Source: Candidatus Sabulitectum sp. (lineage in GTDB: Bacteria > Fermentibacterota > Fermentibacteria > Fermentibacterales > JCC-6). From it: a stretch of DNA of 64,000 bases. Where the stretch lies: positions 4,966-68,965 of the forward strand of contig JAOZUR010000005.1 in the NCBI GenBank assembly GCA_029938555.1. Reading direction: 5' to 3'. Both the position numbers and the translations under genes were made by a program. The notes beneath the pieces were generated by a model. That model made no database searches. It worked only from the letters and a program-made list of their open reading frames with translations, and was not told the origin of the DNA. Position 1 is the first letter of the stretch. Each line of letters starts with the position of its first letter. This document shows positions 2,114-30,272 of this stretch, one piece after another.

Positions 2114-2136
2114 AGTTCACCTCCAAGTTGAACATT

Positions 2137-2157
2137 GTAATACCAATATAGTATTAC
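2137..2157 (-). promoter_or_regulatory. Inverted repeat in the vapBC promoter region (candidate VapB operator)
   Basis: GTAATAC-N7-GTATTAC lies 24-44 nt upstream of the vapB ATG and overlaps TATATT/TACAAT -10-like hexamers on the minus strand. Confidence 0.45.
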
Positions 2158-2391
2158 TTCATTGACTTTGCAAGGTTACTTCTTTTTCACAATCATCCAG
2201 GTAATTGCAAGCGAACAAGAGTTGACTACATGAAAATTCATTTTCCTAATTGATGGTTATCTCAAGAAATATTAGAACCAACAGTAGAAATGATTTCTGC
2301 TATAAATAAGAGGCTGAATTTCTTCTTTGCTATGGGTTAACCTCTTCAAGAAATAACACTTCTTTGAATGAACAGATAATTACCAGCTGAA

Positions 2392-2808
2392 TCAATTTGC
2401 AGGTAATGCTGCGGCTTTGCTTGTATTGAAATAGTAGTGTTCTTTGATAGTGAGTAAACCAAGATAGTACAGGAATGATTTAAACTTGTCTTGTTCTACT
2501 ATGTCACTAAGGGCAAAGCTATGAATGAGAGTTGTTTTTGTCTGACCTGTTTCAACAATATCAGCAAGGATTGAAAAGTTACCGTTAAGCTCTTTTTCAT
2601 CAAAAATCATATCACGAATTGTCCAGTAACCTGTTCTTACATTCTCATCTATTAAATTACTTGGAATCTTCTTTTCTTGAGAGTACTTATTGAAAAAATA
2701 TAGAATCTGTGTTGTGTTATATACTTTTTCGTTAGTATTCTTTGAGAAGCAATAATTATTGTAGTATTGCTGAAGAATGCTTAAAATTATTCCCTTTCTT
2801 AATTTCCA
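2392..2808 (-). pseudogene. Remnant of an AAA-ATPase-like / PD-(D/E)XK (DUF1703-type) protein gene
   Basis: The frame stays open upstream of the annotated Met back to a stop at 2809-2811, with no plausible start. The translated ...QQYYNNYCFSKNTNEKVYNTTQILYFF...FKSFLYYLGLLTI resembles only the middle part of these normally ~500-aa proteins. Confidence 0.5.
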
Positions 2809-2867
2809 TTAATGATTTATATTGATATATGTGATTAGTTGTAATAAAATATCTAGAATGCTATAAC

Positions 2868-3743: not shown

Positions 3744-3772
3744 GATAGTACTAGCAAAAAAGGGAGGATCAT

Positions 3773-5836: not shown

Positions 5837-5852
5837 ACAGGGAAGGATTTTT

Positions 5853-8381: not shown

Positions 8382-8390
8382 GGAGATAAA

Positions 8391-10067: not shown

Positions 10068-10096
10068 AATTAGAATTAGAACCAGGAAAGGAATTC

Positions 10097-11755
10097 ATGA
10101 AAATCTTAAGTTTGATACTTTTGCTGGCTTTAACAAGCCTAGCGTTCTCTGCTAGCAGAACAACATCTGAAGTTACTATCGATGGTGAGGTTACAACTAC
10201 TACCTATTCCAATACGGAGGTACTGATTGAGTCCCCAGTTACACCAGAAGCTCCTGAAGTAATATGGCAATACACTGAGACCGCCGGTATAACGCAAAAA
10301 AACTGCCCTATCAGCCAAAATGCTGAGTTTGTTTTTACAGGCGGCTGGTATGGTGGCGGTGTAATGTTCACCGGTATTAACGGTGATGGTTCAGCTCTCT
10401 GGGAAACAGATGAGCCAGTAGTTGAAACAAATGAATATTGGATTTGGTTAGGTACTGGAACTGCAGTTGCTAAGACAGCAGACATTTTCTATACGGTTCA
10501 AGAATGGACTATTTACAATGACAACGGTACACCTGGTGACACTTCAGATGATTTCCTTGTTTCTGAAGGTAACACAAATGTTTCTCTTTACAATTCTGCT
10601 TCCTCAGTTCCAATATGGTCTTACTCCGGTGATTCTGATGGGTTCATCTCTGCTTCTGTTCAAGAACCGGGAAAATACGCTTGTTCTGATGATGGAACTA
10701 TTTTTGCAACAGCAGGCGCAAAAGATGGCCATCTTGCCATTCAATTTTTCAATTCTTCCAGTGCCACGCCAATAACAACTTATGAAGACGCTTCCATTGA
10801 ATACTTCCCACGCCAGATCAGGTTAACTGCTGATGGTACCAAGTGTATTTTCAGAGTTTCTGCAAATCTTTACCGAGTAGATGTTGCTACTGGTACTTTA
10901 GAAGATACCTACTATCTTAATGCCGGTAATGATTGCTTTGCCATCTCCCCAGATGGTTCTGTTGTTGCTTATGGTTTTACTGCAGCCAGAATTGCTACAT
11001 GGGACGGCTCTGAATACAGCCTTGTAGCAGGGGCCCCTGTAAGCGGTTTCTATGGAGGTGCTGCAACAATAGCCCATGACAATCAAACCATATATTTTGG
11101 TTTCAACAGCAGCAACTATAAAACTACTCGAATTCTTCGATTTGATGTTTCCAGTTCAACACCACTCTGGACCTATGACTCCCCTACGGGAACAGGCTCT
11201 AATCAGAATGCTATGCAGTGGATGGATTGCTCTGATGACGGTAGATGGATGGTTGCAGGCTCATGGGGTATTGAAAATGGAGGTCCGGAAGTACTGGTAT
11301 TTGACGACCAGAATCCAGAAGAACCTGTTTTTGGAATCGATACTCCAGGTTCAATGTTTCATGTTGATATGAGCCCTGATGGTCAGTACATAACAGCTGC
11401 AGGGAAACATGTTCATGCGAATACGATGGGTGGTGGAACTGATGTTTATTTCGCCCAGATTGATTTGCTTGGGATTGAAGGAACTGAATCTTCAAATACT
11501 ATGAATCTTTTACCAATCAACCCAAATCCGGTAACAAATAATCTTAATGTGAACTTCTCTATTCCAACAGCTGGAACTGTAAGCCTTGGTGTTTACGATC
11601 TTTCAGGAAGATTGGTTCAAAATCTAACTCAGGCACAACTTTTAACTGGTTCCCATAATTTATCTTTCACTACAGAGTTAAACACAGGTGTTTATCTTTG
11701 TCGTCTTACTTCAAATGAAGGTTCGATTACACAAAAGTTTGTAGTTACCAGATAG
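10097..11755 (+). CDS. Secreted beta-propeller-like protein with T9SS CTD (paralog B)
   Basis: Colinear with 8391-10067 along its whole length; about half the positions are identical by eye. CTD: NPNPVTNNLNVNF...VYDLSGRLV...GVYLCRL. Confidence 0.6.
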   Translation: MKILSLILLLALTSLAFSASRTTSEVTIDGEVTTTTYSNTEVLIESPVTPEAPEVIWQYTETAGITQKNCPISQNAEFVFTGGWYGGGVMFTGINGDGSALWETDEPVVETNEYWIWLGTGTAVAKTADIFYTVQEWTIYNDNGTPGDTSDDFLVSEGNTNVSLYNSASSVPIWSYSGDSDGFISASVQEPGKYACSDDGTIFATAGAKDGHLAIQFFNSSSATPITTYEDASIEYFPRQIRLTADGTKCIFRVSANLYRVDVATGTLEDTYYLNAGNDCFAISPDGSVVAYGFTAARIATWDGSEYSLVAGAPVSGFYGGAATIAHDNQTIYFGFNSSNYKTTRILRFDVSSSTPLWTYDSPTGTGSNQNAMQWMDCSDDGRWMVAGSWGIENGGPEVLVFDDQNPEEPVFGIDTPGSMFHVDMSPDGQYITAAGKHVHANTMGGGTDVYFAQIDLLGIEGTESSNTMNLLPINPNPVTNNLNVNFSIPTAGTVSLGVYDLSGRLVQNLTQAQLLTGSHNLSFTTELNTGVYLCRLTSNEGSITQKFVVTR

Positions 11756-11772
11756 TCTAAGTTTTTTAGTTT

Positions 11773-11810
11773 ACCCGCATTTTCTTAAAAGAGAATGCGG
11801 GTAATTTTTT
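11773..11810 (+). terminator. Rho-independent terminator closing the cargo operon
   Basis: ACCCGCATTTTC-ttaaaa-GAGAATGCGGGT stem with one bulge, followed by aaTTTTTT. It lies 18 nt after the stop at 11755. Confidence 0.75.
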
Positions 11811-11872
11811 ATACAGTAATGATTTACGAAATTATGCTTATTTTGATATAAAAGATCTCTAAACAGGTATAA

Positions 11873-12274
11873 TTATGAACAACCACATTTTGCTATGAAA
11901 ACAATAAGAAGTACAAAAACTAAAAAAGCGATAAACTTTATTGTACCAGTTATTGAACCAAGACAGCCTCCGCCGCTTGAATTTTGTGTAGTTCCCTGTT
12001 CGTTGTAACTATCGGTATTATTGTAAGTCTCGCCATCATTCTGTGGTCTGTTTTTTGCACCTGGATTATGTGAAGCTTTAACAAAACGATTCTTTTGCCC
12101 GCTATCTCTGCTTGTTTTACCGCGAGAAGATGTTTTTTCTTTTTTCCTTGAAAGTATCGATTTACCTGAACTAGCTGATTTTCGAGAACTGCTGGAAGAT
12201 TTACTACTTTTCGATGAGTGTCTAGATTTACCTGATGAGCCTCTTGATTTGCCTGATGATCTGCTCTTTTTCAA
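11873..12274 (-). CDS. Ser/Lys/Arg-rich low-complexity protein with a single C-terminal transmembrane helix
   Basis: TTG start 5 nt after GGAGGTG. The N-terminal ~110 aa are almost only S/K/R/G/N. The C-terminus IKFIAFLVFVLLIVFIAKCGCS is a hydrophobic anchor ending in CGCS. Confidence 0.5.
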   Translation of the reverse strand: MKKSRSSGKSRGSSGKSRHSSKSSKSSSSSRKSASSGKSILSRKKEKTSSRGKTSRDSGQKNRFVKASHNPGAKNRPQNDGETYNNTDSYNEQGTTQNSSGGGCLGSITGTIKFIAFLVFVLLIVFIAKCGCS

Positions 12275-12340
12275 TTTCCACCTCCGTTAATGATTTTCAT
12301 TAACATATACGAAAAAAGGTAACAAACAAACAGGGGATTT

Positions 12341-13693
12341 CTATTTCTTTTCTCGGCTCTGAGTTACACGAAGATTTAAGAAGCGTACTTTGCTCCATAT
12401 TCTTAACTTCCCAAGAACTACATTTAGTGGAACAGCATTTGGCTCTTTAACTCTGGAAAGAGGGAGAAGGGCGCTTAATCTGGCGAATGCAGTAATTAAG
12501 AACAATACTTGCATGGGGTGCAGGGATAGACCGAAAATTGTAAGAGGAGCTGGCATGAAAAAACCAGAAGCTAACATTGTTATCATCATGCCCATACCAC
12601 AGAATGCACCAAACAGGCCAGAATAGATTTGAGCTTTGTTTTCAGGAGCAATTGCAAGAACTAGATTTGCTGTGACAACACCAACGCATCCCCACATACT
12701 TCCAGATATCAGGGACTCCACATAAATAATCCACAGATTAGAGGGAGACACAAAAAGCCATACAAAAGGAACAACAGTTCCAATGCCAATAGCTAATTTC
12801 ATGGCTGCAACATTACCATACCGATCAATGAGCCTTCCCCAGTATTTAAGTGTAAGAATTGAACCAATGGTACTAGTCATTCCATATAAGAGCATTTCAG
12901 TCACGCCCATATGTAATACTTCAATCATGAACGGCTGCCAGAATGGTGCTCCTATGCCAACAGCAAGCATCCACCAGGATCCAAAGACACATAGTCTTCT
13001 GAAATTTTTATCTTTAAAGGGTTCCTTGAATAGTTGCCTAACCGGCATGCTTGTGGTTTCAGTTGGTCTCTCGGGTTGTTTTGAGAGAATTTTAAGGCCG
13101 ATTAATCCAATGATTCCTGCCACTATAAACATGGCTGCCATGACCAACTTAAGCGCATGCGGATCATCGCTGTAAAAGTCAACAAGTAAACCCAATAGAA
13201 AAGCTGTTGAAAGACCGAATCCTAATAGAACGGCATTTCTTTTAGCAAAAAAGCGACCTCTGATTCGAAGGGGAACCATTCTAGCCATCCACCCCGCCCA
13301 GATATTAGCAGAAACTGCCAGCAATGCAGTGGAAATAGCGAATACAACAAGAACTGCTGTGAGAGATATACGGTCAGATAAAAAAAGAGGAATAATACCA
13401 AGAAAAGGTGTAAGTGCTCGACCTGCCACCGCCCAGTTTACAGTTGCTGATTTGTGTAGAGTTAGCTTTCGGGTAACCAGTGCTCCAAGTGGCATCAGTA
13501 TAAGGAAAATCTGCCCAATTGCTGATAGTATTCCAAACTGAATAGAAGAAGCTCCAAGCATAACAAGAAGCTTGGTTAAGAATACAGAACCTGGTCCAGC
13601 CAGGCTGGTGTATACCTGCGAGTAAACACCTTCAGTAATTGATATTCTGAAGGTTTCCCTCAGCTCAGATGGTTTTGTTTTTAGATCACCCAT
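12341..13693 (-). CDS. MFS-type transporter
   Basis: 450 aa with about 12 hydrophobic segments arranged 6+6 around a charged central loop (KQPERPTETTSMPVRQLFKEPFKDKNFRR). Confidence 0.65.
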   Translation of the reverse strand: MGDLKTKPSELRETFRISITEGVYSQVYTSLAGPGSVFLTKLLVMLGASSIQFGILSAIGQIFLILMPLGALVTRKLTLHKSATVNWAVAGRALTPFLGIIPLFLSDRISLTAVLVVFAISTALLAVSANIWAGWMARMVPLRIRGRFFAKRNAVLLGFGLSTAFLLGLLVDFYSDDPHALKLVMAAMFIVAGIIGLIGLKILSKQPERPTETTSMPVRQLFKEPFKDKNFRRLCVFGSWWMLAVGIGAPFWQPFMIEVLHMGVTEMLLYGMTSTIGSILTLKYWGRLIDRYGNVAAMKLAIGIGTVVPFVWLFVSPSNLWIIYVESLISGSMWGCVGVVTANLVLAIAPENKAQIYSGLFGAFCGMGMMITMLASGFFMPAPLTIFGLSLHPMQVLFLITAFARLSALLPLSRVKEPNAVPLNVVLGKLRIWSKVRFLNLRVTQSREKK

Positions 13694-13881
13694 AAAGGAA
13701 ACATACTTACCGATGCAACTGTGGCAAACTATTCATAGAAGTTTTTCTCTGGCTTCCAGTTACCAGCTGGCAACTCCAATGGTTGTTTCGTTGCAATACA
13801 GGTCAGTTGGGTTATAATTGAGATACCGAATATATTGAAACAAGATTCAGGCTCTACAAACGAGTTTATGGGAAGGGATGC

Positions 13882-14751
13882 ATGAAAAAATTGTTAAGCA
13901 AATTTCGGTTTTCTGTTCCTCTTTTACTACTTTCCATGGTTGCATTTTCCTCAGACCAATGTATTTGGCAGGGGGTAGGGCGAACAGTTGCAGTTGGTGA
14001 TGTCCACGGTGATTATGATCAGTTTGTTTCAATTCTTCTTGAGGCAGGGCTTATTGATTCCGACCTGAACTGGGTTGGAGGAAAAACACACCTAGTTCAA
14101 ACTGGTGATGTTCTTGATAGGGGACCTGATTCCAGGGCGGTAATGGATCTGATTATGTCTCTTGAAGAGCAAGCTCCTTTGCATGGAGGGTATGTACATT
14201 TTCTTTTAGGCAATCATGAAATAATGTTGATGAAAACAGATTTAAGATATGTTCATCCTGGTGAAATTCTTTCTCATGGCGGTTTGAAGGAAATGGTACG
14301 AACTTTGCGCCCCAATGGTTATTATGGTAACTGGCTTGCAGAGCACAATACTATCATTAGAATTAACAATGCTTTATTCACCCATGCAGGCATTTCAGGG
14401 GAGTATTCAAATTTTTCAATTCCAGAAATAAATGAAACAGTGCGAGAGGAAATTAATCGCAATTGGTCTGAACCTTCAGGAATTCTCTCATCCATGGGGC
14501 CTGTGTGGTTCAGGGGGCTTGCAAATGATAGAGGAAGTGCAATAGAACGAGTACTGGAAGAGACTCTTGAAACAAATAATGCAGATTATATTGTAATAGG
14601 TCATACTGTTAATATTAGCGGAATAATCAGTAGGTTCAGTGGAAGAGTCGTGTTGATAGATACAGGCATGTCGAGGAATTATGGAGGTATGGCTCAGTAT
14701 CTTGAGCTTGACGATTTTGGGTATAAAAAATATATAGTATTTTCTGATTGA
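13882..14751 (+). CDS. Secreted PPP-family metallophosphoesterase (calcineurin-like / Shelph-like)
   Basis: Signal peptide followed by the three PPP signatures GDVHGD, GDVLDRGPDS and GNHE. Confidence 0.75.
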   Translation: MKKLLSKFRFSVPLLLLSMVAFSSDQCIWQGVGRTVAVGDVHGDYDQFVSILLEAGLIDSDLNWVGGKTHLVQTGDVLDRGPDSRAVMDLIMSLEEQAPLHGGYVHFLLGNHEIMLMKTDLRYVHPGEILSHGGLKEMVRTLRPNGYYGNWLAEHNTIIRINNALFTHAGISGEYSNFSIPEINETVREEINRNWSEPSGILSSMGPVWFRGLANDRGSAIERVLEETLETNNADYIVIGHTVNISGIISRFSGRVVLIDTGMSRNYGGMAQYLELDDFGYKKYIVFSD

Positions 14752-14810
14752 TTTTTTAAGTATTAACCTATTTTTTTCTTAGAATATAAGTAACTCTAGA
14801 GGAGGTTTTT

Positions 14811-16832
14811 ATGATTTTGTTAGTTCAGGCAATTATGGTTCTGCTATCAATTCAGGTGGCTGATATTTCATTTCAGATTGATTCAGAAGTTGTTGAATTT
14901 TCAACCTTTAGAGGTAATGATGTTGTTTCCATCCCAGGTGGGGCTTCGCCTTTTTCTGAAGGCGAACCCAGCCTTCCAGCTGTTGGTTACTCAATGGTTA
15001 TTCCTCAGGGAACAAGGCTTGAAGGGGTTGAGGTTGAAGTTGTTTCAGAGTTTGTTTTTACTGGAATCTATAATATCATTCCAGTAATATGTCTTCCACT
15101 AAATCAACCTATTCCAAGTTTTCTTTCTCGTTCACCGCTGTATTCTTACAGTTCATTCCCCTCAAATTCTATTCAAGATTTGAATACTGGTGACAAAACT
15201 GGTTTCAAAATTGCTTCATTCTCTTTTGTGCCATTTGCATGGAATCCTCTCACGGGAAAACTTTCTCTAATAACTGAAGCAATTCTTAAACCTGTTATTA
15301 TTACTGTTGATGATGAACCACGGTATCACCTTTCTGAAATTCAGATAAACACGGCAATTTCTGCTCTTAGGTCTGTTGTTAGTAACCCTGAAATGCTTGA
15401 AATGTATTCTCCTGATTTATCTCCAGCTGTAGACGGAGCTCCGTGGGTTGTTATAGCGGATTCTTCTTTATTGTCTGCACTTGAACCTCTTATTGAACTT
15501 AGAGCTATTACACATGGTTCTTCTTTTAAGTCAACCCAGTGGATTTATGATAATTATGAAGGGTATGATACTCAGGAGAAAATTAGAAATTACCTAAAAG
15601 ATGCTTATCTGAATCAAGGGCTTGTATACGCTCTTATTGTTGGTGATTACGGTGAAACTACTCGGATATCCAGTTTGTCTATTGGTGGAAATGTGATGAA
15701 CTCCACAACTGACCTCTATTATAGTGATCTTAACGGTTCCTGGGATCTTGATGACGACCATGAATATGGAGAGTTAACTGATGGTATTGATTGGTACAGT
15801 GATATTTACATAGGAAGATTTAGCACCGATGTGCCGTCTCGTCTTGAAACTATTGTTAACAAAACGGTAGCTTATGAAACCACTGCTCCTGAAGGTTCCT
15901 GGCAAACTACTGCACTACTGGCAGGAGCAGGTTTATGGGTTGATGACCCACCTGGATATTGGGGTTCTTTTGTTTGTGATTCAGTTGATTCCCGAATACC
16001 TGAATCTTGGACTGTACACAAATTGTATGAAGATTATTCAACTCACCCAAACAATCAGATTGAGCTTCTAAATCAAGGTGTTTCATATTGCACATTAAAC
16101 GGTCATGGAAACCCTGGTGGAGTTTACTGGTACTTTGATCCGCCAACTGAAATTGTAACTAATTCAAATTATTCTGATATTAGTAATGCGGGAAAACCTG
16201 CTGTTTTCCATTCTATGGCTTGTCACCCGGGGCACCTTCAAGATGTTGCCTGTATTGCTGAAAGATTAATGTTCTGGCCCCATGGTGGAGGAGTTGCAGT
16301 GATGTTTAATTCTCACTGGGGTTTTGGAACACCTCCAGCTTTTGGTCCCAGTGAGTGGCTTGAACTTTATTTTGCGGAAGTACTTATACAGGATGAGCAA
16401 TATGAAATAGGAGTGGCACACGCTGTATCAAAAGATGAATTTAAGGCTAATGTCAGTATTACAATGCAGACCTGGGTTCTCCAGGAAAATAATCTACTTG
16501 GTGACCCTGCTCTTAGATTCATAGCTGGGCAGATGGGAATAGAAACGGAAGAGAGTTGTTCGTCTTTCTCTTCTCCTGTTATTTACTCACCTTCTCCTAA
16601 TCCTGTAATTGGTTCTTGTGAAGTTAACTTCATTATGCCAGTTACTGGAACTGCTACTTTAGCAGTTTATGATCTTTCTGGAAGAATTGTCACAACAGTC
16701 TACCAGGGGCTTCTTAATGAAGGACAAGGAAGTATTAACTTAGATGTTTCAACTCTTGCAACCGGATGTTACAGTATTGTTATTAATTCTGAAACAGGAG
16801 CATCCTCAACACAGATGCTTGTTTTAAAATAG
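14811..16832 (+). CDS. Peptidase C25 (gingipain-like) family protein with T9SS CTD
   Basis: GAGGAGG SD. His motif LNGHGNPGG and Cys motif FHSMACHPG, spaced as in clan CD C25 peptidases. CTD: SPNPVIGSCEVNF...VYDLSGRIV...GCYSIVI. Confidence 0.7.
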   Translation: MILLVQAIMVLLSIQVADISFQIDSEVVEFSTFRGNDVVSIPGGASPFSEGEPSLPAVGYSMVIPQGTRLEGVEVEVVSEFVFTGIYNIIPVICLPLNQPIPSFLSRSPLYSYSSFPSNSIQDLNTGDKTGFKIASFSFVPFAWNPLTGKLSLITEAILKPVIITVDDEPRYHLSEIQINTAISALRSVVSNPEMLEMYSPDLSPAVDGAPWVVIADSSLLSALEPLIELRAITHGSSFKSTQWIYDNYEGYDTQEKIRNYLKDAYLNQGLVYALIVGDYGETTRISSLSIGGNVMNSTTDLYYSDLNGSWDLDDDHEYGELTDGIDWYSDIYIGRFSTDVPSRLETIVNKTVAYETTAPEGSWQTTALLAGAGLWVDDPPGYWGSFVCDSVDSRIPESWTVHKLYEDYSTHPNNQIELLNQGVSYCTLNGHGNPGGVYWYFDPPTEIVTNSNYSDISNAGKPAVFHSMACHPGHLQDVACIAERLMFWPHGGGVAVMFNSHWGFGTPPAFGPSEWLELYFAEVLIQDEQYEIGVAHAVSKDEFKANVSITMQTWVLQENNLLGDPALRFIAGQMGIETEESCSSFSSPVIYSPSPNPVIGSCEVNFIMPVTGTATLAVYDLSGRIVTTVYQGLLNEGQGSINLDVSTLATGCYSIVINSETGASSTQMLVLK

Positions 16833-16853: not shown

Positions 16854-17711
16854 TTACGGGTTGTGCCAGCTTGCAACGCCATCAATAATAAAACCGTGGT
16901 TAGGATCCAGTGGTGAAGGGCAATAAACAGCATAGGTAGAATCCGTTGCAAAGAGAGTATATTTTAATCCACACTCATAACAATATATTCCGGCTAAGCC
17001 AAGATCTTCTAAAGAAGAGGTATAAGTATTGCTTCCTGCAAAATAAATCACTTCTAGCCCAGCTATAAGATGCATATTTGTTCTGCAATCATTATACCCA
17101 GGTATATACCATGAAGGAATACCAGTTTTTATCATGCCATGATTTGGAATGGAAGGAAGAGGGCATTCAATGGTGTATTCTGTTTCATTTCCCGTAATTA
17201 TATAGGAAAGATTACATTCTGGACATTTTTTGTAACTGTAACCCAGCTCTTCAATGCTATTTGCATATCTGCCAAATTGAGCGTAGTGGTTCTCTTGGTT
17301 AGAAATCAGCGATAGCATATTGTTATGACATCCATAAGAAGGTGGATATGTCCATGAGTGAACTCCATCAATAATATTTCCATGGTTAGGATCCAGCGGA
17401 GAAGGACAAAAAACTGAAAAGGTTGAGTCAGTACAAGTAAGAATATATTCCAATTCGCACTCGGCACAGGTTAAACCTGTTAGCCCAAGTTCTTCAAGAG
17501 TGGTGGCATATTCGTTATGTCCTGCAAAATAAATAACTTGTTGACCTACGACTACTCGCATATGTGTTCTACATTGTTCAGTAGGATCCGGTTGGTATTT
17601 ACCTTCTTGAAAATCAGGTTCTAATGGAGAGTTATTCAATAGATCGGTTTGGGTACAGGAAAAGAGCGAAACCAACATGAAAACAAAACTAATGGATAAT
17701 ATAACTCGCAT
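16854..17711 (-). CDS. Lipoprotein composed of three tandem 81-aa Cys-containing repeats (pilin-headgroup-like)
   Basis: Signal peptide plus lipobox (LVSLFSC). Repeats span aa 47-127, 128-208 and 209-285. Each has C-x34-CxxC-x16-CP.P..PNHG.I..G..SW. Confidence 0.6.
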   Translation of the reverse strand: MRVILSISFVFMLVSLFSCTQTDLLNNSPLEPDFQEGKYQPDPTEQCRTHMRVVVGQQVIYFAGHNEYATTLEELGLTGLTCAECELEYILTCTDSTFSVFCPSPLDPNHGNIIDGVHSWTYPPSYGCHNNMLSLISNQENHYAQFGRYANSIEELGYSYKKCPECNLSYIITGNETEYTIECPLPSIPNHGMIKTGIPSWYIPGYNDCRTNMHLIAGLEVIYFAGSNTYTSSLEDLGLAGIYCYECGLKYTLFATDSTYAVYCPSPLDPNHGFIIDGVASWHNP

Positions 17712-19844: not shown

Positions 19845-19933
19845 TTGTATTTTGCGCTAATCTTCTTATTCAGAGCATTTTTGATACAGTAGCGTTTTCG
19901 CTATATTAGCAGACAGACCTGAAAGAGGAGGCC

Positions 19934-21274
19934 ATGGATTCAACAAAAGCAATTCTTGAAAGTATTTCAGACGGAGTTTTTACCGTTGATTCCTATTGGA
20001 AGATTACCTCTTTCAATCGGGCAGCTGAAGAGATAACCGGTATTTCCAGAGCAGAAGCTATTGGTAGGCAGTGCAGTGAGGTTTTCAGATCATCAATGTG
20101 TGAGTCTGCTTGTGCCCTGAGGGAATCTATGTCCACTGGAAATCAGATCAGGTGTCGTGCAGGTTACATTGTAGATTCTGATGGCGAGAGAATTCCAATA
20201 AGTGTTTCCACAGCAGTTCTTCGGGATGAGCATGGTAATATTCTTGGAGGAGCTGAAACTTTTAGAGATCTCAGTGAAGTGGAAAATCTTCAGAATCAAC
20301 TTCAAGAGCGTTATCAGGTTGGTGATCTGGTAAGCAGAAGTCATGTTATGCAAAAAGTTTTCAAAATGATTCCTGCTGTGGCATCGTCGCCTACCACTGT
20401 TCTGATCCAGGGGGAGACGGGAACAGGAAAAGAGGTGCTTGCAAGAGCAATTCACTCTAGTGGTTCCCGTGGTGAATTACCTTTCATTGCTGTGAACTGT
20501 GGTGCTTTACCTGATGCTCTTCTGGAGTCGGAGCTTTTTGGATACAAGCGCGGTGCATTTACCGGAGCAAATTCAGATAGAGTAGGAAAATTCCTTGCGG
20601 CTGAAGGAGGAACGCTTTTTCTTGATGAAATAGGTGACATAAGCCCAGCCATGCAAGTTAAATTATTACGGGTACTGCAGGAAAAAACAGTTACCCCCTT
20701 GGGATCAAATGAAACTATTTCAGTAAAGGCCAGAATTATCAGTGCTTCTAACAGAAACCTTCTTTCACTTGTGCAATCCGGTTCTTTCAGGCAGGATCTG
20801 TTCTATAGAATCAATGTGGTGAGGTTTGAAATACCTCCTTTGCGGGACCGAGTGGAAGATATTCCTTTTCTGTTTGATATGCTTATTGAAAAACATTGTT
20901 ATGCTCAGGGAATTGATTCTAAAGAATACGATTCTCAGATATTGCCAATTCTCATGGGTTACTCTTGGCCTGGTAATGTAAGAGAACTGGAAAATTTAGT
21001 TGAAAGAGCTATTGTTCTTTCCACTGGTCGTTTGATATCTATAAATGATCTGCCTTCTGAGATTCTTCCAGTACGGAGTAAAACTGTTTCAGGATCAGGA
21101 TCAATGCGTGGAGCAAAAGCTGATACTGAAAGGCAAATGATTCATGCAGCACTAAAGAATTCCGGATTTAATAGAACAGCCGCTGCTACAGAATTGGGTA
21201 TACACAAAACAACTCTTTACAGAAGAATAAAAGCTTTGGGTATTTCCTTGCCTGATTTGGATGGCCGTAGCTAA
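19934..21274 (+). CDS. Sigma54-dependent transcriptional activator (PAS sensor + AAA+ + Fis-type HTH)
   Basis: Walker A GETGTGKE, ESELFGY, intact GAFTGA loop (KRGAFTGA), Walker B LFLDEI, and C-terminal HTH NRTAAATELGIHKTTLYRRIK. The N-terminal PAS-like domain carries C47-x8-C56-x3-C60-x13-C74. No receiver domain. Confidence 0.9.
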   Translation: MDSTKAILESISDGVFTVDSYWKITSFNRAAEEITGISRAEAIGRQCSEVFRSSMCESACALRESMSTGNQIRCRAGYIVDSDGERIPISVSTAVLRDEHGNILGGAETFRDLSEVENLQNQLQERYQVGDLVSRSHVMQKVFKMIPAVASSPTTVLIQGETGTGKEVLARAIHSSGSRGELPFIAVNCGALPDALLESELFGYKRGAFTGANSDRVGKFLAAEGGTLFLDEIGDISPAMQVKLLRVLQEKTVTPLGSNETISVKARIISASNRNLLSLVQSGSFRQDLFYRINVVRFEIPPLRDRVEDIPFLFDMLIEKHCYAQGIDSKEYDSQILPILMGYSWPGNVRELENLVERAIVLSTGRLISINDLPSEILPVRSKTVSGSGSMRGAKADTERQMIHAALKNSGFNRTAAATELGIHKTTLYRRIKALGISLPDLDGRS

Positions 21275-21391
21275 TTCGCTACTGAATCCTTCTTGCACCG
21301 TTGCAATAACGCTACTGATATTCCATTTAAGTAAAATTCAATAATTTATTAATATGCTGTAGAATAAGAAGATACAGTTAAATTTTAATTC

Positions 21392-21407
21392 TGGCATGCA
21401 ATATGCA
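21392..21407 (+). promoter_or_regulatory. Sigma54 (-24/-12) promoter
   Basis: TGGCATGCAATATGCA aligns with TGGCAC-G-N4-TTGCW with exact GG/GC spacing. It lies 117 nt after the activator stop and about 25 nt upstream of the likely TTG start (21433) of the first operon gene. Confidence 0.7.
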
Positions 21408-21414
21408 TTAGTGG

Positions 21415-21861
21415 TTGCTGGAGGTGAACAAATTGAGAATAGCTCTCACGGTCTGGAATGGAAGAATAGCCCCTGTTTTTGATGTGGCAGGTACAGTAAG
21501 ACTTGTTGAACAACACGGGAAGATTGCAAAAAGCGATGAAACAATAACCCTTCCACAGGGAAGTGGCATGAGGATTCGTGTGGATGCACTTGTAGAACTT
21601 CAAATTGATGTTCTAGTATGTGGTGCCATTTCAAGACCTGTTCGCCAAATGATAGCTGATTCTGGAATAAAGATTCATTCTTTTATTTCAGGAGAGGTAA
21701 ATGAAGTGCTAGAAGCACTTTTCACAGGCACTCTTGAAGAAAAACCTTTTCTCATGCCCGGTTGTGGAATAGGTAGGAACAGGAATGGCTGTAGAAGAGG
21801 TGCTGAAAACTTTGGTCGGGGAAGAAACCGAGGTTTTTTCTGCGAAAAGAAAGAGGTTTGA
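21415..21861 (+). CDS. NifX/NifB-C-terminal-like (dinitrogenase FeMo-cofactor-binding domain family) protein with Cys/Arg/Gly-rich tail
   Basis: RIALTVWNGRIAPVFDVA...LVCGAISRPVRQMIADSGIKIH.FISGEVNEVLEA fits one flavour of the Nitro_FeMo-Co domain. The tail is MPGCGIGRNRNGCRRG...GRGRNRGFFC. The likelier start is TTG 21433, 7 nt after GGAGGTG and downstream of the sigma54 promoter. Confidence 0.7.
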   Translation: MLEVNKLRIALTVWNGRIAPVFDVAGTVRLVEQHGKIAKSDETITLPQGSGMRIRVDALVELQIDVLVCGAISRPVRQMIADSGIKIHSFISGEVNEVLEALFTGTLEEKPFLMPGCGIGRNRNGCRRGAENFGRGRNRGFFCEKKEV

Positions 21862-21862
21862 T

Positions 21863-22120
21863 ATGCCACGTGGAGACAAATTAGGACCAGACGGAAGAGG
21901 ACCTCGCGGAGGTGTTTGCGTTGGAGCTGGTCAGAGCAGAGGAATGGGATACGGAAGAGGTAGAGGTTCAGGAAACGGCGCTGGTATGGGTCGCGGCAGA
22001 GGTTTTGCCGGAGTTTACCCTGTAAATCAGAATTCTGAACAGGAAGATTTAAAGAATCGTACACAGGAACTTGAGAAAGAACTTGCAATACTGAAGAGCA
22101 AGCTGGATCAGGGTTCTTGA
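21863..22120 (+). CDS. DUF5320-like Gly/Arg-rich protein with C-terminal coiled coil
   Basis: ATG 21863, in frame inside track ORF 21785-22120, 6 nt after AAAGAGG and 1 nt after the preceding stop. MPRGDKLGPDGRGPRGG.C.G...GMGYGRGRGSG...GRGRG, then EDLKNRTQELEKELAILKSKL. Confidence 0.6.
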   Translation: MPRGDKLGPDGRGPRGGVCVGAGQSRGMGYGRGRGSGNGAGMGRGRGFAGVYPVNQNSEQEDLKNRTQELEKELAILKSKLDQGS

Positions 22121-22129
22121 TTTTAACAG

Positions 22130-22163
22130 GTCAGCCGGTGTTTTTTTGAAAATGCCGGCTGAC
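22130..22163 (+). other. Intra-operon stem-loop
   Basis: GTCAGCCGG-N16-CCGGCTGAC, a 9-bp perfect stem whose loop contains T7, lies 10 nt after the DUF5320-like stop. There is no 3' T-tract, so it is not a canonical terminator. Confidence 0.5.
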
Positions 22164-22185
22164 ATCAAATATGGAGGAAATTAGA

Positions 22186-22545
22186 ATGAAAATAGCAGTA
22201 CCCAGTCCAGGGAAAGACTTGGAATCTGATGTTGATAGCAGATTTGGAAGAGCTTCAGGCTTCATTGTTTACGATACAGATGAAAAAACTTTTATCGTTG
22301 CAGATAACAGTCAAAACTTGAATGCAGCACAGGGCGCAGGCATTCAGGCTGCTCAGAATGTATCCAGCACCGGAGCCGGTGTTGTAATTGCTCCTAGCTT
22401 TGGACCAAATGCATTTAAAGTATTAAAGGCAGCAGGTGTGAAAGCAGTTACTTGTTCTGCTGGAACTGTAAAAGCTACAATTGAAGATTACTTAAACGGC
22501 AAACTTAGCGAATCAGATGCCGCAAATGTGGAAGGTCACTGGTAA
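22186..22545 (+). CDS. NifX/NifB-C-terminal-like protein (second flavour)
   Basis: ATG 22186, 8 nt after GGAGG; the track ORF starts 15 nt earlier. MKIAVPS...VDSRFGRASGFIVYD...GAGVVIAPSFGPNAFKVLKAAGVK is typical of the soluble Nitro_FeMo-Co family. Confidence 0.75.
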   Translation: MKIAVPSPGKDLESDVDSRFGRASGFIVYDTDEKTFIVADNSQNLNAAQGAGIQAAQNVSSTGAGVVIAPSFGPNAFKVLKAAGVKAVTCSAGTVKATIEDYLNGKLSESDAANVEGHW

Positions 22546-22546
22546 A

Positions 22547-23395
22547 ATGAGAATAGCTGTTGCTTCAGGCAAGGGCGGTACAGGCAAAACCACTGTTGCA
22601 GTTGCTCTTAGTATGGCTGTTTCAGAAAAGGTGTTGTACGCTGACTGTGATGTTGAAGAGCCCAATGGAAGCATTTTCTTGAGGCCGGAAATATCAAGAA
22701 CAGAAAAAGTGCTTGTGGAAGTACCGGAAATAGATGAAGAAAAATGTATTTCCTGTGGGAAATGTGCCAAGTTCTGTCAGTTCAATGCTCTTGTTTCTCT
22801 TGGAACCCCGCCTCTAGTTTTTCCTGAACTGTGTCACAGTTGTGGTGGATGTGCCATTGTTTGCCCTACTGACTCAATCTCATGGAAAAAAGTTTCCATA
22901 GGTGAGATAACAGTTGGCAGTGCTGACAGTGGAAGAGTTTCAGTGATACAAGGTAAACTGAATGTTGGTAGTTCCCTTGCGCCACCTGTTATCAGGCAAG
23001 TAAAATCACACATAGCCGATGATATTCTTACTGTAATTGATTGTCCTCCAGGAACAGCATGCCCTGTGATTGAATCACTAGACGGCGCGGATTATGTGCT
23101 TCTGGTCACTGAACCCACTCCTTTCGGGTTGCATGACTTAATACTTGCAGTGGATACGGTTCGAGTGCTTGGAATGCCGTTCTCTGTTGTTATTAACCGG
23201 TTTGATGAAGGCGATGACGGTGTAGAGAATTACTGTAAAAATGAAAAAATTCATATCATGGCAAAGATTCCCCACAGGCGTAGTATGGCAGAAGTTTATT
23301 CCCGAGGGGGGATTCTTTTTGATGCTATTCCAGAGATGCTTGATTTATTCAAAAGTATTCCCCAGATGATTGAAAGGGGGATTGAGGTAGAATGA
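22547..23395 (+). CDS. MinD/ParA-family P-loop ATPase with inserted 2x[4Fe-4S] ferredoxin module
   Basis: ATG 22547, 1 nt after the previous stop. Deviant Walker A ASGKGGTGKTT, followed by CISCGKCAKFC and CHSCGGCAIVCP, then DCPPG and a second P-loop half. Confidence 0.8.
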   Translation: MRIAVASGKGGTGKTTVAVALSMAVSEKVLYADCDVEEPNGSIFLRPEISRTEKVLVEVPEIDEEKCISCGKCAKFCQFNALVSLGTPPLVFPELCHSCGGCAIVCPTDSISWKKVSIGEITVGSADSGRVSVIQGKLNVGSSLAPPVIRQVKSHIADDILTVIDCPPGTACPVIESLDGADYVLLVTEPTPFGLHDLILAVDTVRVLGMPFSVVINRFDEGDDGVENYCKNEKIHIMAKIPHRRSMAEVYSRGGILFDAIPEMLDLFKSIPQMIERGIEVE

Positions 23396-24264
23396 AAGAA
23401 ATAGTTGTAATAAGTGGTAAGGGCGGAACGGGAAAAACCAGCATTACCGGATGTTTTGCAGCGCTTGCAGAAAACGCTGTACTGGCTGATTGTGATGTTG
23501 ATGCAGCAGATCTGCATATGCTTCTAGCTCCCGAGATTATAAGTCGAAATGATTTTATCAGTGGCAATGAGGCTATTGTAAGAGAAGATGACTGCACAGG
23601 TTGTGGTGTCTGCAAGAAGAATTGCAAGTTTGATGCCATTGAAGTAACTCCAGAAGGTAAATATCGCGTTAATCCTTTCAGTTGTGAAGGTTGTATGGTT
23701 TGTGTGGAAGTATGCCCTGTAAAAGCTATAGATTTTCCACCAAATCATTGTGGAGAGTGGTACTTTTCACACACAAGATTTGGACCAATGGTTCATGCAA
23801 GACTTGGAGTTGCCCAGGAAAACTCCGGTAAACTTGTAAGTACTGTAAGGTTAGAGGCTGCTGCAAAGGCTAAGGAATTAAACAAGGATTTTGTAATTGT
23901 GGATGGACCTCCGGGCATTGGATGTCCTGTAATCGCAAGCATAACCGGTGCTGATTTGATTGTGGTTGTTACAGAGCCAACAATTTCTGGAAGACATGAC
24001 ATGAAAAGGGTACTTCAACTGGCACAACACTTTTCAGTACCTGCATGTGTAATTGTAAATAAGTGGGATATCAACCCGGAAATGACTGAAGTTATAGAGG
24101 CGGATGCTAGAAATAGTTCAGCTGAACCGCTGGGCAGAATCCCTTATGATAGAGCCTTCACAGTTGCACAGATAAATGGCAGAACTCTGGTGGAAGAAAC
24201 CACCGGTGAGTCTGTGGAAAAAATAACTACTATCTGGGAGAAAGTATGTCAGAAACTGAAGTAA
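23392..24264 (+). CDS. MinD/ParA-family P-loop ATPase with inserted 2x[4Fe-4S] ferredoxin module (paralog)
   Basis: ATGA start/stop overlap with the upstream gene. SGKGGTGKTS, CTGCGVCKKNC, CEGCMVCVEVCP, VDGPPGIGC. Confidence 0.8.
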   Translation: MKEIVVISGKGGTGKTSITGCFAALAENAVLADCDVDAADLHMLLAPEIISRNDFISGNEAIVREDDCTGCGVCKKNCKFDAIEVTPEGKYRVNPFSCEGCMVCVEVCPVKAIDFPPNHCGEWYFSHTRFGPMVHARLGVAQENSGKLVSTVRLEAAAKAKELNKDFVIVDGPPGIGCPVIASITGADLIVVVTEPTISGRHDMKRVLQLAQHFSVPACVIVNKWDINPEMTEVIEADARNSSAEPLGRIPYDRAFTVAQINGRTLVEETTGESVEKITTIWEKVCQKLK

Positions 24265-25142
24265 AAGAAGGTCAGAGCTGCGAGGGAAGTTGTGATTCAT
24301 GTGCCGTGAGTTCATGTGATGCCAGTGAGCAGAGACCAGGTGAAGATGAAACAGCATTTGCCAATCGTCAGAAGCTTACAAAGAGATTGCTTGGGATAAA
24401 ACACAAGATTGTTGTTCTTTCAGGTAAGGGTGGAGTTGGCAAAAGCACAATTGCAGTAAATCTTGCGATTTCTCTTTCTCTTGCAGGTAAAAAAGTAGGC
24501 CTTCTGGATGTTGATATCCATGGTCCTTCAATTCCAACAATGTTACATCTCGAAGGGGCAAGGGCTGATACTGATGGTGAAAGTATACTTCCTTTGGAAA
24601 TGGGAGGCCTGAAGGTGATGTCTGTTGGTTTTCTTTTGGAAAACAGAGACAGTGCTATTATCTGGCGAGGACCTATGAAAATGGGTGTAATTGAACAGTT
24701 GCTTAGAGATGTTAAATGGGGTGATCTTGATTACCTTATTATTGATTCTCCACCAGGAACAGGGGATGAACCACTTTCAGTTGTTCAGCTTATTGGTGAA
24801 CTTGATGGGGCAGTAATGGTAACAACTCCTCAAGCTGTAGCTGCTGCTGATGTGCGCAAGTCACTTGATTTTTGCCGCCAGCTGAAGCTGAAAGTTCTGG
24901 GAATAGTAGAGAATATGAGTGGTTTTATCTGTCCTGACTGCGGAAAAGAGACAGCAATTTTTCAGGGTAATAATGGTGAAACCATGGCATCTGAAGCAGA
25001 TGTTCCATTCCTTGGAAAGATACCTATTGATCCAGCTGTAGGGGTTTCATGTGATTCAGGAACTCCATTTATGTATCATTACAGTAAAACAGAAACAGCT
25101 AAGCGTTTTGAAAGTGTAATTAACAAAATCATAAATGATTAA
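24246..25142 (+). CDS. Mrp/Nbp35/ApbC-family Fe-S cluster carrier ATPase with N-terminal 4-Cys motif
   Basis: SGKGGVGKST, IIDSPPGTGDE, and a CPDCG cluster-bridging motif. The N-terminus has CEGSCDSCAVSSC (C-x3-C-x2-C-x4-C). It overlaps the upstream gene by 19 nt. Confidence 0.85.
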   Translation: MSETEVKEGQSCEGSCDSCAVSSCDASEQRPGEDETAFANRQKLTKRLLGIKHKIVVLSGKGGVGKSTIAVNLAISLSLAGKKVGLLDVDIHGPSIPTMLHLEGARADTDGESILPLEMGGLKVMSVGFLLENRDSAIIWRGPMKMGVIEQLLRDVKWGDLDYLIIDSPPGTGDEPLSVVQLIGELDGAVMVTTPQAVAAADVRKSLDFCRQLKLKVLGIVENMSGFICPDCGKETAIFQGNNGETMASEADVPFLGKIPIDPAVGVSCDSGTPFMYHYSKTETAKRFESVINKIIND

Positions 25143-25150
25143 GGAGAAAC

Positions 25151-25483
25151 ATGCGTATCGCAATACCAATGGCAAATGGAGCCCTATGTATGCATTTTGG
25201 CCACTGCAGCACCTTTGCACTGGTTGATGTTGAAGATAATAAAGTAACAACAACTTCCGAGGTTGTGCCACCACCACACCAGCCTGGTCTTCTTCCTCCA
25301 TGGTTAGCAGAACAGGGTGCAACATTGATTATAGCTGGCGGTATGGGTTCAAGAGCGCAGAACCTTTTTACTCAGAGCGGTATTAAGGTTGTCACTGGAG
25401 CCGCAGGTACAGGACCAAAGGAAATAGTAGAGAATTATCTTGCCGGTACTCTTGAAGCCGGTGAGAATGTTTGTGATCACTAA
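25151..25483 (+). CDS. NifX/NifB-C-terminal-like protein (third flavour, HFGHC type)
   Basis: MRIAIP...CMHFGHCSTFALVD...PPPHQPGLLPPWLAEQGATLIIAGGMGSRAQNLF...GIKVVTGA...NVCDH. It starts 8 nt after the Mrp stop, behind a GGAG SD. Confidence 0.75.
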   Translation: MRIAIPMANGALCMHFGHCSTFALVDVEDNKVTTTSEVVPPPHQPGLLPPWLAEQGATLIIAGGMGSRAQNLFTQSGIKVVTGAAGTGPKEIVENYLAGTLEAGENVCDH

Positions 25484-25493
25484 ATTGTTCAGA

Positions 25494-25538
25494 TAAAAAA
25501 AGGGCGACTCAAACAAATGAGTCGCCCTTTTATTTTTT
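25494..25538. terminator. Bidirectional rho-independent terminator
   Basis: A7, then AGGGCGACTC-aaacaaat-GAGTCGCCCT, then TTTTATTTTTT. It lies between the convergent operon end (25483) and the RRM gene end (25544). Confidence 0.85.
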
Positions 25539-25543
25539 ATTAA

Positions 25544-25804
25544 TTAGTAGCGGCGAGGTCTTGGCTCGCGTGGCTTTGCTTCATTAATTTTAAGAGGTCT
25601 ACCATCAAGCTCAATGCCGTCGCCTTCAGCGATAGCCTTTTTTGCAGCTTCATCTGGCATTTCAACAAAACCGAATCCGCGACTGCGTCCAGTTTCTCTG
25701 TCAGTGATTACTCTTGCTTCAGTAACATCACCATACTTCTGAAAAAAGTCTTTAAGTAAGTCATCATCAACGCCCCAGGAGAGGTTTCCTACGTACAGGT
25801 TCAT
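25544..25804 (-). CDS. RRM-type RNA-binding protein (copy 1)
   Basis: 86 aa. RNP-2 LYVGNL and RNP-1 RGFGFVEM. Confidence 0.9.
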   Translation of the reverse strand: MNLYVGNLSWGVDDDLLKDFFQKYGDVTEARVITDRETGRSRGFGFVEMPDEAAKKAIAEGDGIELDGRPLKINEAKPREPRPRRY

Positions 25805-25988: not shown

Positions 25989-26249
25989 TTAGTAGCGTCT
26001 TGGTCTCTCTTCACGAGGCTTTGCTTCGTTAATTCTGAGAGGTCTGCCATCAAGCTCAACGCCGTCGCCTTCAGCGATTGCTTTTCTTGCTGCTTCTTCT
26101 GGCATTTCAACAAAACCGAAACCACGACTGCGGCCAGTTTCTCTGTCTGTGATTACTCTTGCATCGGTGACATCACCGTAGTTAGCGAAAAAGTTTCTGA
26201 GAGAGTCATCATCAACACCCCAGGAGAGGTTTCCTACGTAAAGATTCAT
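25989..26249 (-). CDS. RRM-type RNA-binding protein (copy 2)
   Basis: 86 aa, colinear with copy 1 and differing at only a minority of positions. LYVGNL / RGFGFVEM. Confidence 0.9.
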   Translation of the reverse strand: MNLYVGNLSWGVDDDSLRNFFANYGDVTDARVITDRETGRSRGFGFVEMPEEAARKAIAEGDGVELDGRPLRINEAKPREERPRRY

Positions 26250-29633: not shown

Positions 29634-30272
29634 TCAGATTATGGTAATAACTTTACCTACACCACCTTTTATGTATTTTTCTGGGAACAGTTTCCGAATA
29701 TCTTCTTTGTGTTTTGTGCAATGAGTTGAACATACAATATTAATGTGTTTAAGATATTCAAAATTGTTGAATCCGTGCAAGCCACCGATGATACCATGTA
29801 CATGCCCAAATTGAGAGATTACTTCAAGAATATTTGGAACTCCTGGGTGAGCGCATCCAATTAGCAATACAAGTCCGCTATCTGTGCTTATGGCTAAAGA
29901 TTGTTCATTACCCATTTCACCTGTAAGAAAGATACCAGGGTAGATTTCTTTAGGACTTTTGTAGTAATTTACCTGGTTAGGATATCTGATTCCTCGAAAA
30001 GAAAATGGAACATGAATGGTTGCTTTTGAATTTTCATTCAGAAATGCAGAAAGCCCACCTATGTGATCAAAGTCACCATGAGATATGACAATATCGTGTA
30101 CTGTTTCAGGATTGATTCTTAGAGTAGCCAGGTTTTCAAGAAGAATTTTTCCATTTCCACCGGTATCAAAAAGAATGTTTCGGTGGGCAGTTTCAATAAA
30201 ACATGACCAACCCCAATCAGCTTTAAGATCTGATCTGGTGGTGGTATTATCGTAAACAATTGTTACTTTCAT
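29634..30272 (-). CDS. MBL-fold metallohydrolase (COG1237-like)
   Basis: VISHGDFDHIGG (HxHxDH variant). The N-terminal TIVYDN...DWGWSCFIE...ILFDTG pattern fits this subfamily. Confidence 0.65.
   Translation of the reverse strand: MKVTIVYDNTTTRSDLKADWGWSCFIETAHRNILFDTGGNGKILLENLATLRINPETVHDIVISHGDFDHIGGLSAFLNENSKATIHVPFSFRGIRYPNQVNYYKSPKEIYPGIFLTGEMGNEQSLAISTDSGLVLLIGCAHPGVPNILEVISQFGHVHGIIGGLHGFNNFEYLKHINIVCSTHCTKHKEDIRKLFPEKYIKGGVGKVITII

Follow-up and report, generated by a model that had tools for sequence, protein, structure and literature searches.

Introduction

The orp (ORange Protein complex) genes have been under study in Desulfovibrio vulgaris Hildenborough since 2011. Here we analyze a run of eight genes in a 64,000-nt stretch of DNA from Candidatus Sabulitectum sp. 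(GenBank assembly GCA_029938555.1, contig JAOZUR010000005.1, positions 4,966 to 68,965 of the forward strand; this whole stretch is hereafter called the window, and coordinates given without a locus name count from its first letter). Judging from the sequence, we consider that positions 19934-25483 most probably hold a complete orp system, consisting of orpR and one following sigma-54-dependent operon, in a Candidatus Fermentibacterota genome, and we put the probability of this reading at about 0.88. In D. vulgaris, the ORange Protein (ORP) complex is made of Orp3, Orp4, Orp5, Orp8 and Orp9, and its genes are under sigma-54 control in two divergent operons on either side of the gene for the activator, orpR (DVU2106; PMC6345978, PMC3897727, PMC4641369, PMC8359166). 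Of these proteins, Orp3 and Orp4 resemble MinD and contain two [4Fe-4S] motifs apiece, and the orange protein itself, Orp8, carries a Mo-Cu-S cluster (the same four papers). In vitro, MrpORP (Orp9) passes Fe-S clusters on to Orp3-Orp4-Orp8 (PMC6345978). The OrpR regulon in D. vulgaris comprises the orp operons only, and the authors call the physiological role of the complex unclear (PMC8359166).

A first-pass annotation of the window, made from the letters alone, had described the eight genes as an orphan set for which no function has been established. This does not hold, as the literature already describes this combination as the orp cluster (PMC6345978, PMC3897727, PMC4641369, PMC8359166). 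A published biochemical function for orthologous clusters, which that annotation had named as a finding that would speak against it, exists for the parts, whereas the role of the complex as a whole is described as unclear (PMC8359166). Its anatomy and domain assignments were right, and so was its idea of a redox-related Fe-S module switched by a dedicated sensor. The ATP-driven line that it proposed for assembling or delivering a complex cofactor stands as a hypothesis.

Results

Gene content and orthology

The open reading frame (ORF) listing contains all eight genes that had been claimed, co-directional and on the plus strand at 19934-25483; we call them g1 to g8. The way into the orp literature was the NCBIfam equivalog model NF041136 (MrpORP), because it matched g7 and g8. 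Comparison at the level of sequence then assigned g1 to OrpR, g3 to Orp5, g4 to Orp8, g5 to Orp4, g6 to Orp3, and g7 together with g8 to Orp9/MrpORP, as orthologues. When the first-pass domain calls were checked with profile hidden Markov models, g1 and g3-g8 passed; g2 fell below the cut-off and was rescued by its orthologues and by an AlphaFold model, as described below.

The product of g7 (24246-25142, plus strand) is an Mrp/NBP35 Fe-S carrier that corresponds to the P-loop half of MrpORP. It matches the NUBPL/Mrp ParA family PF10609 in Pfam (345 bits) and carries GKGGVGKS at residue 60, CPDC at residue 229 and N-terminal cysteines at 12, 16, 19 and 24. On NF041136 it covers profile positions 4-250 with 389 bits, while g8 (25151-25483, plus strand), a stand-alone Di-Nase half, covers positions 265-365 with 136 bits, in addition to a Pfam match to Nitro_FeMo-Co (68 bits). 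When g7 and g8 were joined in silico, the product aligned in a single stretch over positions 4-365 of 365 and scored 523 bits, the equivalog cut-off being 450 bits. The published signatures of MrpORP are CxHFGHC, PPPHxPGxxP and CDH in the Di-Nase domain and an N-terminal four-cysteine cluster (PMC6345978). All three Di-Nase signatures are present in g8, as CMHFGHC, VPPPHQPGLLP and a C-terminal CDH. The fusion of Mrp and Di-Nase arose several times (PMC6345978), and the occurrence of the two halves as separate genes fits such a repeated origin.

The product of g4 (22186-22545, plus strand) is an orange protein of the Orp8 type with the NifX/MTH1175 fold. It matches Nitro_FeMo-Co with 75 bits in Pfam, and its residues 2-108 align to D. 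gigas ORP (structure 2WFB) with an E-value of 2e-18 (70 bits). The E-values to TM1290 (1RDU) and MTH1175 are 3e-20 and 4e-15, respectively.

The next two genes, g5 (22547-23395, Orp4 type) and g6 (23392-24264, Orp3 type), both on the plus strand, encode MinD-type ATPases, each with a CbiA/MinD domain and two Fer4 motifs (Pfam). The first-pass annotation had described them as deviant-Walker-A ATPases with two CxxCxxCxxxC motifs each, and these motifs were found: the deviant Walker A is GKGGTGKT in both proteins, and the cysteine motifs follow the P-loop at residues 67 and 96 of g5 and at residues 68 and 98 of g6. The two are told apart by comparison with the orp2 operon of Nitratidesulfovibrio (locus L054), as g5 is 37% identical to its first ATPase and g6 47% identical to its second, against 28-32% for the cross-pairs. 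The g6 family has more than 8000 homologues, with about 60% identity between those of Fermentibacterota, Geobacter, Kiritimatiellota and Lentisphaerota, and g6 itself is 64% identical to its Geobacter counterpart. The C-termini of g5 and g6 have amphipathic character, with a mean hydrophobic moment of 0.62-0.78 that is only suggestive.

The small gene g3 (21863-22120, plus strand) matches DUF5320 with 43 bits (Pfam) and is of the Orp5 type. The N-terminal half of its product is Gly/Arg-rich, with an isoelectric point (pI) of 11.8, 20 Gly in 50 residues and one Cys, and is followed by an acidic C-terminal helix. The gene at the Orp5 position of the Nitratidesulfovibrio locus is also a DUF5320 gene (28.4 bits; cut-off 27), and Orp5 is described as a homologue of a small [2Fe-2S] protein (PMC6345978). 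A literature search found no relevant newer work on the function of ORP or on DUF5320.

The product of the leader gene g2 (21433-21861, plus strand) is a NifX-fold protein with a Cys/Gly/Arg-containing cationic tail. It scores 24.5 bits on Nitro_FeMo-Co, under the Pfam cut-off of 26.3, and its orthologues exceed this cut-off with 28.5-36.9 bits. The AlphaFold model has a predicted local distance difference test score of about 90 over residues 1-110, and all of the 14 best matches in the PDB found with Foldseek have the NifX fold (PH0822, TM1816, MTH1175, MJ0327, ORP, NifX and NafY). Residues invariant in the g2 family are W8, R11, P14, F16-D17-V18, C63 (in LVCGAIS) and M108-P109-G110-C111. The tail, residues 106-142, is disordered and has a pI of 10.7, with 8 Gly, 7 Arg, 4 aromatic residues and three Cys in 37 residues. 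The gene is possibly the counterpart of orp7. Considering its two invariant cysteines and cationic tail, we infer that g2 may be a further cluster-binding or cluster-storing subunit. In a separate observation, six g2 homologues (P0168, P0196, P0214, P0216, P0220 and P0222) carry a zinc-ribbon-like C-terminal module, CxCPxCG...CPxCG, after the Gly/Arg tail.

The orpR gene, g1 (19934-21274, plus strand), had been described as a PAS-AAA+-helix-turn-helix activator of sigma-54, and Pfam bore this out with matches to PAS, Sigma54_activat (229 bits), AAA_lid_14 and HTH_8; the loop of this enhancer-binding protein reads GAFTGA. D. vulgaris OrpR is a [4Fe-4S] redox sensor that uses C52, C61 and C65 plus D/E54 (PMC8359166). 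In g1, Cys47, Cys56 and Cys60 with Glu49 fit the pattern C-x-[DE]-x6-C-x3-C (cysteine spacing Cys-x8-Cys-x3-Cys), and in 7/7 homologues, two of them from Desulfovibrionaceae, the cysteine triad is invariant and the acidic position is D or E. Its closest match among these is the Geobacter OrpR, at 59% identity; the OrpR genes of Desulfovibrio and Nitratidesulfovibrio, which lie beside an upstream activating sequence (UAS) of the D. vulgaris type, are 46-49% identical to g1.

Operon structure and regulatory DNA

The junctions, read from the sequence, are tight: 1 nt between g2 and g3 and between g4 and g5, an ATGA overlap of g5 and g6, a 19-nt overlap of g6 and g7, and 8 nt between g7 and g8. 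These junctions had been listed correctly, given the likeliest start codons. The start at 21415 that had been chosen for g2 was wrong, as the gene starts with a TTG at 21433 behind the conserved GGAGGTGAAC, where relatives carry ATG or GTG, and the 65-nt gap between g3 and g4 had not been listed. Sequence and comparison show, upstream of g2, a pair of palindromic boxes, then an AT-rich spacer, a -24/-12 promoter and a leader of about 15 nt, followed by the seven genes and a terminator.

A scan with TGGCAC-N5-TTGCW, allowing one mismatch, missed the sigma-54 promoter, and its 4 matches were no more than expected by chance. The promoter call was made on footprinting over 7 loci, in place of this failed consensus scan. 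In an alignment of 7 loci, the spacer between orpR and g2 is variable except for the two boxes, TGGCA-N7-TGC at 21392-21407 and the ribosome-binding site. The promoter that had been proposed is thus found again as TGGCA...TGC, invariant in 7/7 related loci. Its sequence is TGGCATgcaatATGCA (21392-21407, plus strand), with GG at 21393-4 and GC at 21405-6 in GG-N10-GC spacing and a predicted transcription start near 21418; it has 2 mismatches from the consensus and as a motif match is not significant. At the same position Geobacter has TGGCGTgcccgTTGCT (TGGCGT-N5-TTGCT), plus a palindrome.

The palindromic boxes have the form GTAGC-N6-GCTAC. With at most one mismatch allowed, the 64 kb contains three matches to this form (19889, 21267 and 21300; 0.58 expected), each of them in orp regulatory DNA. 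UAS 1 is the perfect palindrome GTAGCTAATTCGCTAC (21267-21282, plus strand) at about -143 from the predicted start; it runs across the stop codon of orpR, and all of the 7 loci compared keep CGTAGC-N6-GCnAC. The same bases double as coding sequence, for the C-terminal DGRS of orpR and its stop, and as regulatory sequence. UAS 2 is GTTGCAATAACGCTAC (21300-21315, plus strand) at about -110, and its Geobacter counterpart is GGTTGCAACCATGCAACC. In the interval between the boxes and the promoter, a candidate site for integration host factor (IHF), ATTCAATAATTTA (21336-21348, plus strand), was read by eye at about -75; it fits 8/9 specified positions of WATCARnnnnTTR and is not conserved in relatives. 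In D. vulgaris the UAS elements lie at -131/-88 and the IHF sites at -79/-43, and the functional orp1 IHF2 site at -79 has a position similar to that of ATTCAATAATTTA (PMC3897727). The distances in the present locus, about -143/-110 and about -75, agree with those of D. vulgaris.

The third box, GTAGCGTTTTCGCTAT (19889-19904, plus strand), lies upstream of orpR and overlaps a -10-like TATATT (19902-19907). This element was read by eye and has a poor 15-nt spacer to TTGATA, and a scan for sigma-70 promoters gave none upstream of orpR. The block CGTwGC-N6-GCTATAtTAC at this place is invariant in 7 related loci. The overlap of the box with the -10-like element suggests that orpR is autoregulated, with the box as the candidate site. 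Such a site fits the negative autoregulation that has reportedly been described for DVU2106.

Downstream of g8, the strong terminator that had been claimed is an intrinsic, bidirectional one at 25498-25531 (14-bp stem, -24.7 kcal/mol, z = -6.9), common to the orp operon and a convergent RNA-recognition motif (RRM) gene.

The gap between g3 and g4 contains an intercistronic hairpin (22130-22163, plus strand; core CAGCCGG...CCGGCUG; -23.5 kcal/mol, z = -4.4). It is found in 5 related Fermentibacterota loci with different loops and 6 compensatory pairs, and is absent from the related locus L128 and from Geobacter. No Rfam model matched above threshold in the orp region, this hairpin included. A role as terminator was ruled out, as the hairpin has no U tract. 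It may serve in the processing or stabilisation of the mRNA and thereby give g2-g3 a level different from that of g4-g8.

Distribution of the gene set

The closest named relatives are Candidatus Sabulitectum and Candidatus Fermentibacteria metagenome-assembled genomes, in which g6 is 84% identical, and six Fermentibacterota contigs have the identical eight-gene order with the same flanks. More distant loci keep part of this arrangement. Tichowtungia (Kiritimatiellota) retains a core of ORP, two ATPases and Mrp, with a DUF134 regulator in place of OrpR and with extra redox proteins. The genes at L123 5035-11984 of Tichowtungia aerotolerans encode, in this order, DUF134, DUF5320, C_GCAxxG_C_C, ORP, a DUF89/ARMT1-like protein, the two ATPases, Mrp, a metallo-beta-lactamase-fold protein, a glutaredoxin-like protein, a ferredoxin and Di-Nase.

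Reference genomes were also scanned with the published D. vulgaris UAS. L032 and L054 were the relevant ones among the 80 loci listed, which were mostly chance matches. In the Nitratidesulfovibrio locus L054, whose sequence ends inside orpR, an OrpR homologue (49%) lies beside the box and is followed by DUF5320 and the two ATPases. In Desulfovibrio sp. W18, another OrpR homologue (L032 3405-4880; 46%, cysteine triad intact) has a box of the D. vulgaris type upstream. It has no adjoining orp genes, its neighbours being a PAS histidine kinase and a repeat protein.

Neighbouring genes

Outside the cluster, Pfam identified type-9-secretion cargo, peptidases, transporters, two RRM proteins, PFOR, an aminoacyl-tRNA synthetase and SbcCD in the window. 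The two RRM genes, paralogues of 86 aa each on the minus strand (25544-25804 and 25989-26249), converge on the orp terminator, and most related Fermentibacterota loci that were examined have one or two RRM genes in this position. A metallo-beta-lactamase-fold gene (29634-30272, minus strand) lies 4 kb from the cluster. Its product is a distant homologue (E-values of 1e-19 to 1e-21) of those of the metallo-beta-lactamase genes directly after the orp genes in Geobacter (L122 9268-10113) and Tichowtungia (L123 9748-10590), which are 39% identical to each other. Such a gene may be a recurrent accessory of orp. On the other side, 16854-17711 (minus strand) is a lipoprotein-like ORF of 285 aa, which has no Pfam match and contains three internal Cys-rich repeats, each ending in CPSPLDPNHG or CPLPSIPNHG. 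Many proteins encoded in the regions 16-16832 and 55408-61556 have the type-9-secretion C-terminal sorting domain, among them a peptidyl-arginine deiminase of the Porphyromonas type and two C25 (gingipain-like) peptidases. This cargo is consistent with a proteolytic fermenter of the FCB (Fibrobacterota-Chlorobiota-Bacteroidota) group.

Discussion

Several points weigh against the identification as a complete orp system. D. vulgaris has two divergent operons and the present locus one co-directional operon. Mrp and Di-Nase are two genes here, with a stop codon and 8 nt between them, and g7 by itself, at 389 bits, stays below the 450-bit cut-off of the equivalog. For g4, g7 and g8 the orthology is based on the structure of D. 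gigas ORP and on the NCBIfam model, as L054 covers the orpR, DUF5320 and ATPase side of such a locus and not orp7-orp8-orp9, and g2 is a possible counterpart of Orp7. On the regulatory side, the box GTAGC-N6-GCTAC is unlike the D. vulgaris OrpR box, GGGCGYRTTTTGCGCCC, half of UAS 1 overlaps the conserved DGRS codons of orpR so that its conservation is not purely regulatory, and neither rpoN nor the ihf genes were found in the 64-kb window. As to the layout, the divergent arrangement is a trait of the type locus and not of the orp system.

Other explanations have to be considered for such a gene set. The Nitro_FeMo-Co domain in three of the proteins (g2, g4 and g8), together with NifX of the NifEN complex and NafY among the distant Foldseek matches of g2, might point to a detached module for the maturation of a nitrogenase cofactor, serving a nif, nfl or cfb system elsewhere in the genome. 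We regard this as very improbable. As the first-pass annotation had stated, nifH, nifD, nifK, nifE, nifN and nifB are absent from the window, with no Pfam match in any window ORF of at least 110 aa, and the gene-neighbourhood comparison it had proposed gave nif neighbours in 0/10 related loci. Among NCBIfam models only MrpORP, and no NifX, NafY or NifB model, matched g2, g4 or g8 at E <= 0.01. In sequence they match best to ORP, MTH1175 and Thermotoga TM proteins, which come from organisms or contexts that lack nitrogenase, and a literature search for Fermentibacteria and nitrogenase found nothing. The orp proteins do share with NifX, NafY and the NifB C-terminal domain the fold (PF02579) and the theme of binding anionic metal-sulfur clusters non-covalently, but they have neither the nitrogenase context nor a radical-SAM domain and are nearer to ORP, MTH1175 and TM1290/TM1816. 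A store or buffer of thioferrate-like Fe-S material, in which the cationic Gly/Arg tails of g2 and g3 hold anionic Fe-S polymers that the ATPases and Mrp mobilise, is somewhat less improbable, though we still doubt it. IssA of Pyrococcus furiosus holds thioferrate by such a tail, and there is an uncharacterised mesophilic clade, IssX, with Gly-rich, high-pI tails (PMC5524996). Like IssA, g2 combines a globular domain, of the IPR003731-type fold, with a disordered tail of high pI (10.7), the N-terminal half of g3 (pI 11.8, 20 Gly in 50 residues) is of similar character, and MTH1175 ends similarly in GSGRGRRR. However, the g2 tail has 37 residues, about half of the 70 in IssA, is poor in aromatic residues, stands in an orp operon, and has three Cys including the invariant one of MPGC, which anchors it and argues for a discrete cluster site; the homologue of Orp5 is moreover reported, in work cited in PMC6345978, with a [2Fe-2S] cluster and not with a polymer.

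The hypothesis published for D. vulgaris, a part in cell division or in placing the septum in strict anaerobes, under which g5 and g6 would be redox-sensitive ATPases of the membrane or cell pole that act in MinD-like positioning and the small proteins would be regulators, is the most plausible of the three, although we still think it unlikely to be the role of the locus. It is compatible with the orp identification at the level of the parts, and the deviant Walker A and amphipathic C-termini of both ATPases are in line with it, the latter by a test that is only suggestive. In D. vulgaris, inactivation of orpR causes morphological defects and MrpORP is polar (PMC8359166, PMC6345978). Against this stand the absence of minC, minE, ftsZ and other division genes from the window and from the related loci, and the judgement of its own authors that the role is unclear.

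Returning to the orp reading, the most likely biochemical activity of the complex would be a redox-gated, dedicated trafficking of Fe-S or thiometallate clusters. By analogy with the Desulfovibrio work, the PAS domain of OrpR would carry a [4Fe-4S]2+ cluster on Cys47, Cys56 and Cys60 plus Glu49 at low redox potential, and OrpR on the GTAGC-N6-GCTAC boxes would drive the opening of the sigma-54 promoter with ATP. Oxidation of the cluster would turn transcription off with DNA binding kept, and the third box, over the orpR promoter, would probably serve negative autoregulation. A g7 dimer, bridged by a [4Fe-4S] cluster at CPDC, would hand clusters to g5 and g6 with their two ferredoxin-type [4Fe-4S] sites each, and these would be in complex with g4 as the holder of a non-covalent metal-sulfide cluster. 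The complex would also take in g3 (DUF5320) and the g8 Di-Nase, whose Cys/His motifs may form a [3Fe-4S]-type site.

A broader proposal can be made only speculatively, and we think it rather improbable as a whole. The g2 protein would stand for a widespread, ORP-associated class of the NifX fold, marked by WNxRIAPVFD, CGAIS, MPGC and a variable cationic tail, sometimes with a zinc ribbon, and would form an IssA-like scaffold or store with DUF5320. The OrpR operon would then be a redox-gated line for the assembly, storage and delivery of clusters, working beside ISC and SUF in strict anaerobes, and the cell-shape phenotype of Desulfovibrio would be secondary.

The locus adds no new kind of system, as the system is already named and published. 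Its significance lies in the distribution and in the parts. Many anaerobic phyla share a conserved ORP system. The present locus indicates that OrpR/sigma-54 control and the full protein set reach beyond Deltaproteobacteria into a fermentative lineage of the FCB group. The compact single-operon layout, and not the divergent one of D. vulgaris, is common to distant phyla, because it is found in Geobacter and in six Fermentibacterota loci. Two under-studied components are highlighted, namely the g2 family with MPGC and DUF5320 as Orp5. For annotation, orpR and orp-type names are preferable, as "dinitrogenase FeMo-cofactor biosynthesis protein" wrongly implies nitrogen fixation.

Comparison with known systems

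Among the cluster carriers of the Mrp/NBP35/ApbC/Cfd1 type, g7 likewise has GKGGVGKS, a Walker B motif and a CxxC through which two monomers share a bridging [4Fe-4S] cluster. It differs in that it has an N-terminal four-cysteine cluster, as MrpORP and Nbp35 do, and by gene context appears to be dedicated to the ORP proteins.

Geobacter sulfurreducens (L122; CP010430.1) has the same order of orpR, g2, DUF5320, ORP, ATPase, ATPase and Di-Nase, with 49-64% identity. Its Mrp gene lies 4 kb downstream and not between the ATPase and Di-Nase genes, and a metallo-beta-lactamase-fold gene follows directly. To our knowledge, this cluster has not been characterised experimentally.

The type locus of D. 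vulgaris Hildenborough, DVU2103-DVU2109, and that of D. alaskensis G20, Dde_3197-3202, have the same protein set as the present one. The control logic is also that of D. vulgaris: palindromic enhancer boxes lie about 90-140 bp upstream at a sigma-54 promoter, the spacer is AT-rich or of the IHF type, and a further box stands at the orpR promoter. Apart from the layout and the box sequence weighed above, the two differ in that MrpORP is fused in D. vulgaris and split into g7 and g8 here, that the OrpR loop reads GAFTDA there and GAFTGA in g1, and that the present operon is led by the extra NifX-fold gene g2. The host of the one is a sulfate reducer, and that of the other a fermentative bacterium of the FCB group.

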